From: a virus
Lineage: Duplodnaviria; Heunggongvirae; Uroviricota; Caudoviricetes
IMG/VR virus record: IMGVR_UViG_2548876945_000007
Direction: 5' to 3' (one strand)
DNA length: 4,971 nucleotides
Within the stretch, counting starts at the first letter, position 1; each line of letters begins with the position of its first letter. The position numbers and the translations under genes were made by a program. Of this stretch, positions 1,077 through 4,971 are shown piece by piece. The notes beneath the pieces are model-generated. The model worked only from the letters and a program-made list of their open reading frames with translations. It ran no database searches and was not told where the DNA came from.

Positions 1077-1211
1077 ATGCTGATAGGTTATATACGGGTA
1101 TCAACAAATGAGCAGAATACAGCATTACTAGGAAATGCGCTCGAGTGCGCAGGATGTGAGCTGATTTTTGAAGACAAAATATTTCGAACACTTCTCCCAA
1201 TTTTAAAGTGA
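1077..1211 (+). pseudogene. Truncated serine DNA invertase (Pin/Gin/Hin/Cin family); only about the first 35 codons are retained, then the frame reads into unrelated sequence and stops
   Basis: Translation from ATG 1077 is MLIGYIRVSTNEQNTALLGNALECAGCELIFEDKI, closely resembling the N-termini I recall for Pin/Gin/Hin (MLIGYVRVSTNDQNTDLQRNAL.CAGCE.IFEDK) and including the catalytic-serine context RVST. After nt ~1181 the translation FRTLLPILK-stop (TGA 1209-1211) has no invertase similarity. The ORF is too short to appear in the supplied track. Confidence 0.75.
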
Positions 1212-1275
1212 AGTCGATGGTTTATGCTGGTGCCACGATTATTTCCTCCTGCTTCCCGGTTCAGAAAACAGTCGC

Positions 1276-1304
1276 GAAGAACCAGCCTTAACAGGCTGGT
1301 TCTT
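1276..1304 (-). terminator. Putative intrinsic terminator for the 870-aa gene
   Basis: Inverted repeat GAAGAACCAGCC (1276-1287) / GGCTGGTTCTT (1294-1304) with a 6-nt loop, beginning 7 nt past the TAA stop (1313-1311). On the minus strand a TGTTTTCT run follows the stem after a 6-nt spacer, so the U-tract is not ideally placed. Confidence 0.45.
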
Positions 1305-1310
1305 ATCGGC

Positions 1311-3923
1311 TTAGCTTACAGCTTGATCGAGATCTTCAAGTGCACAAATCATGGTTTCTACTGTTGCTCGGTCAAATTCAGCCCTTCCATCTTCCTCATG
1401 TGTGCCTTTGTTAAGATAGCGCCATTCTCGCGAATCTCCACTAATCCCAGTCAAAACGTCAATTGGACCAAAAACAGCACTTTTATTTTGATCAGTAAAA
1501 TCAGTTTTATTAATCTGTTTTTTTAATTGATCTGACAAATTACGTAACTCAATAGGTGAATTTGCCGACCGTAACTTAAGGCTAAGATTACCGTCACCAT
1601 ATTTATTTACATAGCGCCAGACCTTCACCTTCATCAGCGATTCAAGTGCCTGTCTACATTTAGCGAGAGCTTCCCTAATTTCATTACGTTCGTAATGTTT
1701 TCGTGCCGAGATAATGTAGTTCCTAGGGGCGCAGTTGAAATCGACACGAATATGCAATTCATCTAGACGTGGCAAGAAAGTGAAAGTCTTGGATTGAGCA
1801 GCAACCCGCGTAGGCAGTAAATTTTGGATATCTTTAAAAAATTCCTCTCCATGACAAGCTAGAATGATTTGCTTTTCGGCAAAGAACGTATCTTCAAATA
1901 ACGTTTTTCGAATGGAATCTCTATGATCGTCATCAATAGCATTTACCGGATCATCAAAAATTAAAAGTGGGCACTGCTCATTAATGTTTTTTGCCAATAA
2001 GATCGCTAGTCCTATACAGCGCACATGACCTTCACTTAGCACATGAAGGGCATCAAAATATTGTACGGGATTATTCTGGAACGCCACTTCCAACCGTTGA
2101 TTTTGCATCAGAGGTAATTTGATATCAGCGAGCTTTTCGCCTCTGGAATCATTACGGTTAAACGCATTATAAAGGGTAACAATGTTATCTCCGAGATTTG
2201 CTACGAGTTGCTGAGGTAAACGATCTTTATAGGCGTTCAATCGAATAACAAAGTTGGAATATGCCTCAGAAATTTCTTGGTTTTTCCTAACAATAGCTTT
2301 CTCATGCTCAACTTCATCAATAAGTTGCCTATTTTCGGCATTAAATCTGGTAATTAGCAACTGAGCTTCAGAGATGGACTTCTCTGTTTCCTCTCTTTTT
2401 GTCTGTAATATAGTTATCTGTCGTTCGGTTTCACGCAGACTATCAAGAGATTGCTGTTGCAGTTCTCGTCGTTTAATATTTTCATCTGTTTTTTTATCCT
2501 CTTTCTCCAGATGATGTACCTGTTCTTCAAGAAGAGTCCAAGGGGGTATCCCATCACCTGCCGGTTGCTGTAGTGCACACCACAAATCGCTTCCAGTTTT
2601 ATTTCGGAAATCTTCAAGTGGATTGCTATGCGGAATGAACTGACAACAAGTACTAATAACTTTATGAACGTCGAACATCAGCTGGCTGATTGATTTTTCC
2701 AACTGAGTTATTTCGTCTTGTAGTGTCGATAAAAACTTAAGTTTAAGCAATTCATTACTGGCATATTTGTAAGGGTTTTTTGCAACGTGCTGAAGTGGGG
2801 TATGACATGCAGGACAATGGTCAGGCTTGGTGCTTTGCAACTGGACTACGGCTTCAAATAAATTTTTAAAAGAAATTTGCTGACTTGCCTCTGCCAGTTG
2901 ATTTTGCTTGCCCTTAAGGTCTGTAAGCCCCTTTTCGACTGAATCACTGAGCTTTTTCAAAATGGCAGAGGTTAGACCACTCTTGGCCGGAAGCTGTTTT
3001 TGTAACTCGGTTTCAAGCTGCCGAATGACGCCGATATTTTGCCCATCCCCCTTCAACTCTACAACCATCTGATGGAAAGATATGCCTTCACGATAGCCTG
3101 AGGCTAGAGTTTGTTCTGCTGAGGTTAGTTCTTCAAGGTGGGCCTTACTCGTTTTCAGTTGCTGCTGTGCTCCCAAGAGAGATTGGCTCTTTGTTGCTAA
3201 TTGAGCAGCCTTTACGCCAGTCAGGTCGATATATCGGGCATCAATATCTGAGGTGAAATTTCGCACAAAATCATTAAATGTATCCAACCCGAATAATGTT
3301 GATATAAGTTCGGCTTGCTTTGCTGGGGCCAGAGCAGCGATTCTTGAAAAGCTGTCGATACGATTCTTTTCAATAAAACAAAAGCGATATTGTGTTTCAT
3401 TATTCTCAATCATCACATCCTGCTCTTGATCTCCAACACCTATAATTTCGGGAGCAGAAAACTGATTGACATATGCGTTTCTAAAATAGTCGTGTTGATT
3501 ACGAAAACGCTTACTTTCTGCCTCCGCGACGCGGCCCAGTAATGCGTATTCAAGTGCCTCGCAGAAACTGGATTTCCCCGTACCATTGGGGCCGTAGATC
3601 AGCACTAGGCGGGAATCTAAATCAAACTCCTCTCGTCTGGCAAATCCTCTAAATGGTCCAACAGACATCTTTCTAAGTCGGCTAAAGGTGGAAACACTTT
3701 CGGCGTTCTGCTCAGGGAGTGTTTGGACTTCTGGGCTGAGTGTATCCCAGGCGGATTGAGCCAGAGCGACAATACGTTTGACCCGCTGACCCTGTGCGGT
3801 TCCCAACGGCACGATTTCGTCAAGATTTTCCCACACAAGATTTGCTATTTTCCTTACATCACTTGGTACATCTGCTGTATTTAAGGTTTGAAAAAAACGC
3901 AACAACTCACTGCCGAGCATCAT
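1311..3923 (-). CDS. 870-aa Rad50/SbcC-like ABC ATPase with coiled-coil arms, CxxC zinc hook and a C-terminal putative nuclease/effector domain; RloC-like candidate anti-phage protein
   Basis: Uninterrupted 2.6-kb ORF in AT-rich DNA. Walker A GPNGTGKSS (aa 111-119; nt 3567-3593), CPAC hook (aa 370-373; nt 2805-2816) between two Q/E/K/L-rich coiled-coil-like stretches, signature-like LSEGH (aa 629-633; nt 2025-2039), Walker B LLIFDD (aa 653-658; nt 1950-1967), D-loop-like PVNAIDDD, H-loop His691, then ~170 aa C-terminal extension (aa 700-870; nt 1314-1826). SD-like AAGGA sits 3 nt before the first ATG (3923) and 6 nt before the second (3920), so the true start may be the second ATG. Confidence is for a real CDS with an ABC-ATPase fold; the RloC-like functional call is about 0.5. 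Confidence 0.88.
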   Translation of the reverse strand: MMLGSELLRFFQTLNTADVPSDVRKIANLVWENLDEIVPLGTAQGQRVKRIVALAQSAWDTLSPEVQTLPEQNAESVSTFSRLRKMSVGPFRGFARREEFDLDSRLVLIYGPNGTGKSSFCEALEYALLGRVAEAESKRFRNQHDYFRNAYVNQFSAPEIIGVGDQEQDVMIENNETQYRFCFIEKNRIDSFSRIAALAPAKQAELISTLFGLDTFNDFVRNFTSDIDARYIDLTGVKAAQLATKSQSLLGAQQQLKTSKAHLEELTSAEQTLASGYREGISFHQMVVELKGDGQNIGVIRQLETELQKQLPAKSGLTSAILKKLSDSVEKGLTDLKGKQNQLAEASQQISFKNLFEAVVQLQSTKPDHCPACHTPLQHVAKNPYKYASNELLKLKFLSTLQDEITQLEKSISQLMFDVHKVISTCCQFIPHSNPLEDFRNKTGSDLWCALQQPAGDGIPPWTLLEEQVHHLEKEDKKTDENIKRRELQQQSLDSLRETERQITILQTKREETEKSISEAQLLITRFNAENRQLIDEVEHEKAIVRKNQEISEAYSNFVIRLNAYKDRLPQQLVANLGDNIVTLYNAFNRNDSRGEKLADIKLPLMQNQRLEVAFQNNPVQYFDALHVLSEGHVRCIGLAILLAKNINEQCPLLIFDDPVNAIDDDHRDSIRKTLFEDTFFAEKQIILACHGEEFFKDIQNLLPTRVAAQSKTFTFLPRLDELHIRVDFNCAPRNYIISARKHYERNEIREALAKCRQALESLMKVKVWRYVNKYGDGNLSLKLRSANSPIELRNLSDQLKKQINKTDFTDQNKSAVFGPIDVLTGISGDSREWRYLNKGTHEEDGRAEFDRATVETMICALEDLDQAVS

Positions 3924-3943
3924 AAATCCTTTTTACTTGTTGA

Positions 3944-3972
3944 CTTCTAACGTTATATTGCAATGTTAGAAG
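3944..3972. promoter_or_regulatory. Inverted repeat (possible operator) in the 5' leader/promoter region of the 870-aa gene
   Basis: CTTCTAACGTT (3944-3954) and AATGTTAGAAG (3962-3972) are reverse complements with one mismatch, separated by 7 nt, 21-49 bp upstream of the start codon. I could not assign a convincing -35/-10 pair by eye. Confidence 0.3.
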
Positions 3973-4560
3973 ATACACTTTCAGATTATTTTTTCACGTG
4001 ATCTGCAAATCAAATTTTTACTAATGCTGGCTGATTCGTTATCGACAAACATGTCTTCCTTTTTCCATTCTTACCAGCGATCAGCAAAGCAAATTACACG
4101 GACATGTTACCAGAGTGGCTTAAACATTCTGCTGGTGGGCGCAGTTTCAGAGTGAGCATTAATTAGCAATAACTTATCCAACCACCCAGAGCTATATCCC
4201 AAATGATGGGGTCAAAATGCAGTTGTTCATTACGCTCGCTCAGAAGCATAACGGCGCTACGTTGAAACGTCCGATGGATTCTGGATCGTATGGAATGTCG
4301 CGTTCAACTTCTTCATGGAGTAGGCGAGACAATCTTCACGCGTCATTGACTATGAAAAGCGTCCACACCTAGAAAACTCCGGTCACCTGTAAGATTGAAA
4401 GTATAAGGTATCGTTCTACACGAAACGATTTGACTCCTATAACTGAAAAGCGGTGTCGGTAGTTAAAGGCATTAGTGCCTATTTGGCATATGGAAGCTGA
4501 GAAAGAAAAGAATGGTACTCGTTGATGGGGATAGTTTAAGCACAGTAATTTAAGTAGATG

Positions 4561-4591
4561 AAAAAGCAAAAAGCCCACATCTGTGGGCTTT
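4561..4591 (-). terminator. Rho-independent terminator hairpin, strongest for transcripts arriving on the minus strand from higher coordinates; possibly bidirectional
   Basis: Stem AGCCCACA (4572-4579) / TGTGGGCT (4583-4590) with loop TCT. On the minus strand the stem is followed immediately by TTTTTGCTTTTT (complement of 4561-4571). On the plus strand only TTT follows. Confidence 0.5.
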
Positions 4592-4600
4592 CATGTCACT

Positions 4601-4633
4601 AAGGAGCCGCGGCTCCTTTGCGTATCCTTTTTT
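4601..4633 (+). terminator. Second GC-rich hairpin followed by a T-run; possible plus-strand terminator or structured RNA element
   Basis: Perfect 18-bp palindrome AAGGAGCCGCGGCTCCTT (4601-4618), then a TTTTTT run at 4628-4633 after a 9-nt spacer. The spacing is atypical for a canonical intrinsic terminator. Confidence 0.3.
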
Positions 4634-4708
4634 GTCTCCTCACCGTCTGGTCGGTGTCCTGCTGAGACTGCTAACTACCTGTTTTTGTTGGTGTTGTCCT
4701 TACACCGT

Positions 4709-4722
4709 CCAATCATGATTGG
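4709..4722. promoter_or_regulatory. Perfect 14-bp palindrome, candidate dimeric protein-binding site
   Basis: CCAATCATGATTGG is its own reverse complement. It lies in a region without a convincing ORF. Confidence 0.25.
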
Positions 4723-4971
4723 TGGAGCTGGCGGGAGTTGAAACCGCAGGCATGTCGTATGCAAGAACGTGCTGCGGTTGGCTGGTGAACTTCCGATAGT
4801 GCGAGTATTGAATGATTTCCAACTGTTATCGATTTTGCGTATTTTTTGCATGAGAGGATTTTTACCTCCTCCCACCGATCCTCCATGGCTTTACGCCAGT
4901 GTCTCTGGTCTGCTATGTGCCAGGAGCAGCCATTGCTAAGTCCATCCTGTATTGTGCAGGTCAGCTCGTTT

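Follow-up and report, generated by a model that had tools for sequence, protein, structure and literature searches.

A solitary E. coli prophage gene encoding a Rad50/SMC-like ABC ATPase fused to a predicted HEPN ribonuclease, a candidate phage-defense gene

Here, we analyzed a 4,971-nucleotide stretch of E. coli prophage DNA (the window) and found that its single large cargo gene, located at 1311..3923 on the minus strand, encodes a Rad50/SMC-class ABC head with two long helical arms, an invariant CPxC hook and, directly after the C-lobe, a domain of HEPN fold. Judging from sequence and predicted structure, the product most likely is an abortive-infection RNase gated by ATP and DNA. We estimate a probability of roughly two in three that it is a self-contained abortive-infection or restriction-backup RNase working like RloC. 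On sequence grounds, its family is uncharacterized and widespread, a sister to the anti-phage tRNA nucleases RloC and PrrC yet separate from RloC/AAA_13, and this relationship makes the gene a good candidate for phage defense. An earlier note on this DNA had left the choice between an unlinked or divergent RloC-like member and a different ATPase-effector fusion; our results favor a family distinct from RloC/AAA_13.

The ORF check of the window recovered the 870-aa frame exactly as it had been described, and profile searches indicated that it is a complete gene combining the Rad50/SMC-like ABC ATPase, the zinc hook and the HEPN fusion. The stop codon occupies 1311-1313, and two adjacent ATGs are available for the start, at 3923 and 3920. 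The second of these, which yields 869 aa and is the start used by most database entries, has the better spacing from an AGGA ribosome-binding site. This site lies in the 5' region (3924..4013, minus strand) together with a promoter-like TTGATT-17-AATAAT (4013-3985) and an inverted repeat TTCTAAC...GTTAGAA (about 3950-3976), all at the level of consensus only; in the promoter scan, shuffled sequence gave promoter-like matches at least as often as the region upstream of the gene. A 9-bp perfect hairpin, GAACCAGCC/GGCTGGTTC (1279..1303, minus strand), whose first base lies 7 nt past the stop codon, is a possible terminator with a weak T-tract.

All motifs of the split ABC head proposed previously, including Walker A with K117 and LSEGH, could be located in window coordinates (all on the minus strand). 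Ahead of the ATPase, the structure model and conservation indicated an N-terminal helical extension of ~80 aa (aa 1-80; 3684..3923), which had no match to known families in the profile search and is conserved across the family, with R47 present in at least 90% of 76 relatives. The N-lobe of the head (aa 82-236; 3216..3680), assigned by profiles and motifs, contains Walker A GPNGTGKSS at aa 111-119 (3567-3593), with K117 as the P-loop lysine, and an invariant Q203 that is a candidate Q-loop residue. In the AF2 model of the full protein (pLDDT 75), this lobe is followed by an ascending helical arm (aa 237-349; 2877..3215) with DSSP helices at aa 237-277, 283-291, 299-307 and 319-349 (pLDDT about 85-92). 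The descending arm (aa 389-588; 2160..2759) is longer and shows a break near aa 430-460. Between these antiparallel helices lies the hook loop KPDHCPACHTPL (aa 366-377; 2793..2828), defined by motif, model and conservation and carrying CPAC at aa 370-373 (2805-2816); the two coiled-coil-like stretches noticed earlier around CPAC correspond to the arms of the model. Residues C370, P371, C373 and T375 were at least 90% conserved over the wide family (76 relatives), and the CX2C hook in the coiled-coil ATPase insert of RloC (PMC2610378) is represented by C370-P-A-C373, a predicted zinc hook.

The C-lobe (aa 589-716; 1776..2159), again assigned by profiles and motifs, comprises the signature LSEGH at aa 629-633 (2025-2039), Walker B and the D-loop LLIFDDPVNAIDDDHR at aa 653-668 (1920-1967), in which D-D replaces D-E, and the H-loop IILACHGEEF at 1839-1868, whose CHGEEF includes H691. 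In agreement with RloC ATPase motifs (PMC2610378), GPNGTGKSS, LSEGH, FDDPVNAIDDDH and CH691 were invariant or at least 90% conserved. The nearest solved structures to the full AF2 model were Rad50, SMC heads, LmuB and SbcC, and the comparison with Rad50 that had been suggested produced the top full-length match (Rad50 7zr1).

Downstream of H691 there are 179 aa, close to the ~170 aa reported at first, and the effector or nuclease domain expected at this end of the protein is borne out as a HEPN-fold domain (aa 733-870; 1314..1727, minus strand) whose catalytic residues are those of PrrC/RloC, in matching register, and which is predicted from structure and motifs to be a metal-independent RNase. 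The AF2 model is all-alpha over aa 733-869, structural comparison identified the HEPN alpha-helical fold, and the best structural neighbors were classical MNT-type HEPNs. At the sequence level, none of the HEPN-clan Pfam models reached threshold (best DUF7014 1e-3, HEPN 5.6e-3 and DUF4145 0.3), sequence profiles of the domain against the PDB gave only noise, no PHROG family covers the domain, and no model for it was found among the PADLOC, Pfam, NCBIfam and PHROG models searched. The nuclease of PrrC and RloC itself belongs to the HEPN superfamily (PMC3710099). The Arg-X3-Glu ... His triad (PMC2610378) is present as R757-x3-E761 (1641-1655) and T841-H842, the latter within R835-Y-L-N838-K-G-T841-H842 (1398-1421). 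R757, N838 and H842 were invariant in all 76 relatives (28-51% identity) and E761 was found in 75; W769 and W834 are invariant and family-specific. The HEPN Rx4-6H motif occurs here as R835-x6-H842, although this Arg varies across the family at large (kept in 12 of 76 relatives), where N838 and H842 are invariant. In PrrC, R320, E324, R349, N352 and H356 have been shown to be essential, whereas S355 has not (PMC3025547). No counterpart of the PrrC anticodon-recognition motif was visible in the 870-aa protein. The HEPN domain was found almost solely in this ATPase architecture (224 clusters at 50% identity). An hhalign comparison of the nuclease domain of this family with that of the RloC-like family gave an alignment that centered on the catalytic-His motif and was not significant (P 0.0034, probability 9.5%), so the catalytic layout common to this family and PrrC/RloC could be convergent.

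The full-length architecture was shared by at least 1,392 clusters at 90% identity from many phyla, and all listed motifs were at least 90% conserved among the 76 relatives at 28-51% identity; the architecture is therefore far beyond chance. No functional name for the family was found anywhere, including the member names of 14 clusters. The gene occurred in at least 15 of 5,426 complete E. coli genomes, plus hundreds of draft assemblies, and these copies are annotated merely as 'AAA family ATPase'. IMG/VR contained only 2 loci, both without tail-fiber/invertase context.

Comparison of flanks between strains placed the gene in a variable cargo segment at the right end of the prophage (1182..4567; GC 0.417). 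Flanks 1-1181 and 4568-4747 are common to strains with other cargo in this slot, which in another strain is occupied by a DUF262 restriction gene. The GC content of the cargo (0.42) is lower than the E. coli genome average. The slot is bounded by a truncated tail-fiber invertase and the ssrA attachment site. The former, a Pin/Hin-type DNA invertase recognized by its ORF and by strain comparison (1077..1181, plus strand), retains only its first ~35 codons and marks the left boundary of the replaced cargo. Scans of the window for tRNA, tmRNA and Rfam families returned nothing, the fragment of ssrA at the right edge being too short to call. No other intact gene was found in the segment 1182-4567; thus, the previous view of a stand-alone gene carried as prophage cargo agrees with a solitary gene in a variable prophage-end slot. 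We propose that it works without partner genes, as a moron-type passenger of a Mu-like-tailed prophage that has integrated at ssrA. Other family members were also located at prophage or satellite ends.

It had been stated that RloC and PrrC genes are usually linked to restriction-modification (R-M) genes, which is true of PrrC (always linked) but not of RloC, for which linkage was seen in only 8 of 72 cases (PMC2610378). The reported absence of R-M genes from the window was confirmed, and hsd genes were found neither there nor in the E. coli loci examined; linkage does appear at the family level. In a neighborhood survey of 62 species-level loci, 47 of them intact, roughly one locus in four had the gene next to type I R-M, BREX or type III/IIG enzymes, and about 10 were hsd-linked. 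In 8 loci from unrelated phyla hsdS lay directly upstream (-1 to +67 bp), and one locus (L031) was arranged as hsdM-hsdS-gene-hsdR. Neighbors at other loci included BREX, type III Res and type IIG genes, and sometimes Fic, RhuM or AIPR. Most loci, the window locus included, had no R-M or BREX partner, and no partner gene recurred in the 47 intact loci.

RloC offers a precedent for how such a protein might work, as its hook and DNA-dependent ATPase gate its nuclease (PMC2610378, PMC3458546). By extension, two protomers of the window protein would pair via the Zn hook and ATP-dependent head engagement. At rest, the HEPN RNase would be kept inactive. A phage-associated cue, such as DNA ends, a replication intermediate or the inactivation of a restriction system, might then be sensed on DNA or via an R-M/BREX complex. 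The resulting ATP-dependent conformational change would bring the two HEPN domains together and form an active site from R757, E761, R835, N838 and H842. By analogy with PrrC and RloC, the RNA cut would most probably be tRNA anticodon loops, so that translation would halt and the infection abort. It is also possible, although we hold this only tentatively, that the family is an evolutionary and mechanistic bridge from SMC-type DNA sensors (Lamassu LmuB, Rad50) to PrrC/RloC. It might then be an autonomous 'restriction guardian' that uses its hook-linked arms to keep watch on DNA, or on the condition of type I R-M/BREX complexes, and fires a PrrC-type HEPN RNase. A new trigger, or an RNA target other than tRNA-Lys, would come from the additional domain at the N-terminus and from the ~40 residues inserted in the HEPN domain.

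The ancestry of the protein might also be different. Outside the PrrC/RloC lineage, an LmuB-like SMC sensor of phage DNA ends or replication structures may have independently captured a HEPN effector in the role of a stand-alone LmuA, which would make the protein a single-chain Lamassu-type system. The best PADLOC match was indeed LmuB (PDLC03859, 1.1e-26, 92 bits, aa 176-702), as expected for an LmuB-type SMC ATPase, and the LmuB structures 9hqx_B and 9ux7_A were among the best full-length structural matches; Pfam architecture matches were SMC_N (1.7e-16), AAA_23 and AAA_21, with AAA_13 below threshold. LmuB, too, carries coiled-coil arms and is a presumed DNA sensor, and Lamassu effectors are highly modular. 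However, Lamassu is a multi-gene system (LmuA effector, usually LmuC), whereas the effector of the window protein is fused and has no partner genes. LmuA and LmuC were found neither in the window nor as conserved neighbors in the 62 loci, and Lamassu membership was rejected on this basis. Furthermore, the Walker B/D-loop (DDP...D-D-x-H), LSEGx and CPxC variants, the HEPN catalytic layout and the R-M-embedded context fit PrrC/RloC instead, and we consider a Lamassu origin unlikely. It would differ from the RloC-like RNase mainly in ancestry and little in mechanism.

A second alternative is that the HEPN domain is non-catalytic, with a regulatory or nucleic-acid-binding role, and that the protein acts on DNA or modulates neighboring R-M/BREX systems as an accessory subunit rather than as an RNase toxin. 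This appears quite unlikely: the invariance of R757, N838 and H842, and near-invariance of E761, extends down to 28% identity, these residues correspond to those whose mutation inactivates PrrC and RloC (PMC2610378), and partners that could be modulated are missing from most loci. Finally, a housekeeping or phage-encoded SbcC/Rad50-type DNA-repair ATPase, to which the generic SMC_N, AAA_23 and Rad50 similarities, the PHROG 77 'SbcC-like' match (2e-18) and an sbcD gene immediately downstream in 3 loci might point, was rejected and is effectively refuted by NCBIfam Rad50, SMC and RecF equivalog scores far below cutoffs (Rad50 models 14-32 bits vs 700-1087), by the presence of a separate 1,229-aa sbcC following that adjacent sbcD, by the absence of sbcD/mre11 from the window, by the HEPN fusion, and by the rarity and mobile contexts of this accessory gene.

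ABC-ATPase/HEPN fusions were predicted as defense genes in 2013 and, to our knowledge, only PrrC and RloC among them have been studied. The present family is large, spans many phyla and has neither a functional name nor an effector domain recognized by the models searched; its description fills a gap in defense-system annotation. Its occurrence both as solitary E. coli prophage cargo and joined to type I R-M/BREX operons makes it a single-gene system that can readily be studied in the best available model host. The family speaks to the question of how SMC/Rad50-like sensing controls a suicidal RNase, and to whether genes of this kind protect restriction systems from the anti-restriction functions of phages.

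With regard to known systems, the window protein resembles Rad50/SbcC in its head, arms and CPxC zinc-hook architecture, but it lacks an Mre11/SbcD partner, its arms are far shorter, it is fused to a HEPN domain, and its gene is a mobile accessory one. The PADLOC candidate PDC-S06 is of similar size (about 850-860 aa), and its models match the ATPase lobes of the window protein at about 3e-10 but not the C-terminal domain. ERFG_01251 is described as joining an ABC ATPase to a 'classical' HEPN (PMC3710099), the class to which the best structural neighbors of the C-terminal domain of the window protein also belong. A closer parallel is the AAA_13 protein WP_000423308.1 of an APEC O1 P2 prophage, probably APECO1_4465, the prototype of prophage-borne ABC-HEPN proteins in PMC3710099, as inferred from position and fit. 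It is also E. coli prophage cargo in a known hotspot, combining an ABC ATPase, a CPFC hook and HEPN, and its R646-x3-E650 and R683-x2-N686-x2-S689-H690 (motif R-Y-I-N-R-G-S-H) are in identical register to the window protein. However, it is a full AAA_13 member (2e-111, 374 bits) of 738 aa from another prophage type and slot, and only the motifs align.

PrrC, the tRNA-Lys anticodon nuclease of the EcoprrI type Ic R-M locus, is about 400 aa long, has no coiled-coil/hook insert and is always R-M embedded, whereas the window gene encodes 870 aa with arms and has no R-M partner. Nevertheless, R320/E324, R349/N352/S355/H356 and DD216...D222-D-N-H225 of PrrC are matched in identical register, and its hsdM-hsdS-X-hsdR layout is reproduced at L031. 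RloC proper was ruled out by the AAA_13 (PF13166) score (26.4 bits vs a cutoff of 36, with an alignment covering aa 650-719 only), by the E761-H842 spacing of 80 (36-52 in RloC and 39 in the AAA_13 reference protein), which results from about 40 extra HEPN residues forming two helices, and by an ATPase that scores closer to LmuB/SMC_N, with Lamassu LmuB best. BLAST-level similarity to RloC was absent, the arms are longer (hook at aa 370 vs 254-291 in RloC), and the ~80-aa N-terminal domain is absent from RloC/PrrC. On the other hand, the window protein and RloC, exemplified by the 804-aa protein of Geobacillus kaustophilus (PMC2610378, PMC3458546), both unite in one polypeptide an arm-split ABC head, the CPxC hook and, at the C-terminus, a HEPN-type nuclease that has R-x3-E ... 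R-x2-N-x2-(S/T)-H. With RloC/PrrC the protein also shares a D-D Walker B followed by P, a D-loop ending in D-D-x-H and an LSEGx signature. RloC genes, too, are mostly solitary, and are sometimes found in type I/III R-M or Pgl/BREX loci and sometimes in prophages.

One long ORF was found in the window (1311..3923, minus strand), encoding an 870-aa protein on which the residue numbering is based. It opens with two neighbouring ATGs, and the 869-aa form that starts at the second one (3920, 6 nt from an AGGA) prevails in databases. First, the minus-strand motifs listed in the earlier note were all confirmed: Walker A (GPNGTGKSS, with K117 as the P-loop position named there), CPAC (aa 370-373), the LSEGH signature (aa 629-633), Walker B with the D-loop (LLIFDDPVNAIDDDHR, aa 653-668) and the H-loop CHGEEF (H691). 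Second, an AlphaFold2 model built from 30 homologues (pLDDT 75) predicted a split ABC head and an all-alpha C-terminal domain, and its long helices 237-349 and 389-588 flank the CPAC loop, in agreement with the coiled-coil-like stretches proposed there. Beyond H691 the protein continues for 179 residues, close to the ~170 claimed. What was directly observed for this ABC-HEPN gene is how its domains are arranged, that its putative catalytic residues are invariant and that it occurs in defence-type contexts; we consider it fairly probable (about 0.7) that it is an ATPase-gated RNase defence gene. Two further features accompany the ORF: an inverted repeat (TTCTAAC-N13-GTTAGAA, ~3950-3976, minus strand) between a promoter-like -10 and the ribosome-binding site, which could be an operator tightly repressing a toxic gene, and a perfect 9-bp hairpin (1279-1303) directly past the stop codon.

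With regard to the ATPase, Pfam matches were SMC_N (1.7e-16), AAA_23, AAA_21 and AAA_15. The top PADLOC model was LmuB, the SMC-like ATPase of Lamassu (1.1e-26), followed by mad3, PbeC, DndD and candidate PDC-S06; the NCBIfam Rad50, SMC and RecF equivalogs all scored far under their cutoffs. Solved structures nearest to the full-length model were Rad50 (7zr1), SMC/cohesin/condensin heads, LmuB (9hqx_B, 9ux7_A), SbcC and JetC. These structures and profile scores place the head and arms in the generic Rad50/SMC class. The LmuB matches would also suit a single-chain Lamassu-type origin, mechanistically similar to an RloC-like model; we regard such an origin as unlikely. The helical N-terminal domain of ~80 aa (aa 1-80; 3684-3923, minus strand) was confidently modelled and is conserved, with R47 kept in at least 90% of relatives; it had no family match and no counterpart in RloC or PrrC, and may serve as a sensor or bind a partner.

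Under the ATPase-gated RNase reading, the effector would be the C-terminal domain. Sequence searches with it gave only sub-threshold hints (DUF7014, DUF4145, STM4504/CBY_0614, and a Csx1/Csm6 HEPN match at 5e-4), and the only Pfam families recurring in this domain among 37 divergent members were DUF4145 (5 members), HEPN (4) and DUF7014 (3). Other matches included SsR10, sacsin HEPN, TT1696, HEPN toxins, Roquin and AbiA, with LsoA and MtlR ranked lower; Foldseek returned the same proteins on top with weak E-values. Thus, the effector is a HEPN-fold domain, the superfamily in which Anantharaman et al. placed the PrrC and RloC nucleases (PMC3710099). When the isolated domain was compared with 1.84 billion representatives, 224 clusters at 50% identity were recovered, nearly all carrying it at the C-terminus of 855-920-aa proteins; it is therefore a module dedicated to this architecture. 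Neither PADLOC v2 nor the searched Pfam, NCBIfam and PHROG libraries contained a model covering it.

The family comprises at least 1,392 clusters at 90% identity (868-887 aa), with full-length identity of at least 57% across Gamma-, Beta- and Deltaproteobacteria. The 62 species-level loci add hosts from Cyanobacteria/Melainabacteria, Nitrospirota, Campylobacterota, Spirochaetia, Verrucomicrobia, Clostridiales, Bacteroidaceae, Planctomycetes and Elusimicrobia. Among 76 full-length relatives (28-51% identity), the ATPase motifs, C370-P-x-C373-x-T375 and the HEPN residues were kept: R757, N838 and H842 in all 76, E761 and W834 in 75, W769 in 74, G840 and F850 in 73, and L837 in 71. Members are named only 'AAA family ATPase', 'SMC', 'DndD' or 'hypothetical', and no experiments on the family were described in the literature searched. 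A computational study of 2013 recorded ABC-HEPN fusions besides PrrC and RloC as the APECO1_4465 and ERFG_01251 groups (PMC3710099), and our family may be the latter. It is moderately interesting as a widespread single-gene system that occurs in E. coli and can be tested directly.

Outside E. coli, the gene is often joined to restriction systems: hsdR-hsdM-hsdS precedes it by 14 bp in Geothermobacter, hsdS precedes it and AIPR follows in Methylovorus, and a type IIG enzyme lies upstream in Buttiauxella. Among the two nearest upstream ORFs of 47 intact loci, Methylase_S was commonest (9), followed by N6_Mtase (5), Eco57I (4), and PglZ and BrxL (2 each); downstream neighbours included HsdR-type subunits, Fic/DOC (2), RhuM (1), AIPR and integrases. 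Jackhmmer searches with Hsd seeds found type I restriction-modification (R-M) genes beside it at loci L022/24, L031, L038, L047, L049, L050, L054, L066 and L074, with hsdS directly adjacent (gaps -1 to +67 bp) at all of these except L047 and L066. At L031 the order hsdM-hsdS-[ABC-HEPN gene]-hsdR is the layout of the prr locus that encodes PrrC. An Idiomarina MAG (L066, 5090-6850) has another SMC_N-like ATPase, of 587 aa, separating hsdS from the gene. A rival reading is an accessory role in R-M, or a non-catalytic HEPN domain; with the catalytic residues invariant and some relatives travelling as solitary cargo (at the end of a P4-like element, and at that of an icd-located lambdoid prophage), we consider this quite improbable. 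A housekeeping SbcC/Rad50, the identity that the earlier note would have accepted as a refutation, is rejected as extremely improbable, since the three loci with sbcD just downstream each carry their own 1,229-aa sbcC, with BREX pglZ-brxL before the gene. These loci (L070, 2302-14570; L020; L030; from Methylobacter, Nitrosomonas and a Deltaproteobacterium) form an unusual string of a type 1 BREX end, the ABC-HEPN gene and complete sbcD-sbcC, with 4-bp overlaps.

In E. coli, a Mu-like-tailed prophage that has integrated at ssrA carries the ABC-HEPN gene (GC 0.42) at its right end, in the order invertible tail-fibre segment, truncated DNA invertase, ABC-HEPN gene (opposite strand), SOS-response-associated peptidase pseudogene and ssrA 3' end. 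Homology with strains bearing other cargo ends at 1181 and restarts at 4568, and the same slot holds a DUF262 (GmrSD-type) gene in strain BE2-5 and intact pinE with three hypothetical genes in strain 0-4 (compared as L078/L079). Thus, 1182-4567 is a variable cargo site, and in this prophage type it resembles a defence hotspot. The slot contains no partner gene, and R-M genes are missing beside the gene here, so that its description as stand-alone prophage cargo was borne out. The Pin/Hin-type invertase (1077-1181, plus strand) is cut after ~35 codons, exactly where homology to intact-pinE strains ends, which indicates that cargo replacement destroyed the recombinase; the invertible segment (222-1050) is presumably frozen in one orientation. 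A frameshifted, truncated SRAP/YedK-like remnant (~4110-4350, minus strand, per the matching RefSeq annotation) is found with the gene in every E. coli copy seen, and a strong terminator-like hairpin (4569-4592, minus strand; 10-bp stem and T-run) marks the right cargo junction. The window passes the ssrA 3' end (~4721-4747) and runs on into other sequence (4721-4971). In strain 50EVAW (L001, 16940-28939), a second island follows with an integrase, IS1 and a P4-like satellite that has Drt3a, so that mobile elements lie in tandem at ssrA.

In RloC, the hook and the DNA-dependent ATPase act as an internal switch of the nuclease (PMC2610378; PMC3458546). By analogy, a cue from DNA or a restriction complex would trigger hook- and ATP-mediated dimerisation and so place the two HEPN domains, which are fused directly to the C-lobes of the heads, in an active arrangement. 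RNA, probably tRNA, would then be cut and the infection aborted; the anticodon loop as the target is slightly short of an even chance. The definition of RloC rests on its ABC motifs, on a CX2C hook lying in coiled coils and on the triad Arg-X3-Glu-X36-52-His, often with Ser just before His and with all three residues essential (PMC2610378). In EcoPrrC, essential residues include R320, N321, E324, R349, N352 and H356 of the nuclease, and D215, D216, S219, S220, D222, D223, N224 and H225 of the ATPase (PMC3025547). Our R757-x3-E761 and R835-x2-N838-x2-T841-H842 are in the same register as PrrC R320-x3-E324 and R349-x2-N352-x2-S355-H356, and D657-D658-P-...-D664-D-D-H667 corresponds to D215-D216-...-D222-D-N-H225.

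As an RloC-family reference we used a 738-aa protein from a P2-like prophage of E. coli APEC O1, a full member of AAA_13, the PrrC/RloC family (2e-111), with a CPFC hook, LSEGE, IDDPISSL and R646-x3-E650-x39-H690 with Ser before His; some relatives are annotated 'wobble nucleotide-excising tRNase'. We infer from its position, which fits the gi order, that it is APECO1_4465, the prototype of prophage-borne ABC-HEPN proteins (PMC3710099). Classic hotspots of that prophage (L077, 920-954 kb) hold two cargo genes: the RloC-like gene lies between gpA and the portal gene, and the tail-fibre assembly gene is followed by one for a Sll1717-family P-loop ATPase. An ISEc12 element comes next and interrupts the tail sheath gene. 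BLASTP aligned only the P-loop and WRYLNKGTHEE/YRYINRGSHSD between the two proteins. Profile comparison by hhalign matched the signature/Walker B/H-loop lobe (probability 94%, E = 1.4e-7), and the nuclease domains only around the catalytic-His motif (P = 0.0034, probability 9.5%). The earlier RloC-like assignment thus stands in that our family and PrrC/RloC have in common their architecture, the way the catalytic residues are laid out and several unusual motif variants (D-D-P for D-E, LSEGx for LSGGQ, CPxC). It does not extend to membership: the protein scores 26.4 bits against an AAA_13 gathering score of 36, ~40 extra residues widen its Glu-to-His spacing to 80, against 36-52 in RloC, and it has the additional N-terminal domain and longer arms. 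This is a family separate from PrrC/RloC that likely shares distant common ancestry with them, in line with the divergent member or different ATPase-effector fusion that the earlier note had also allowed for.
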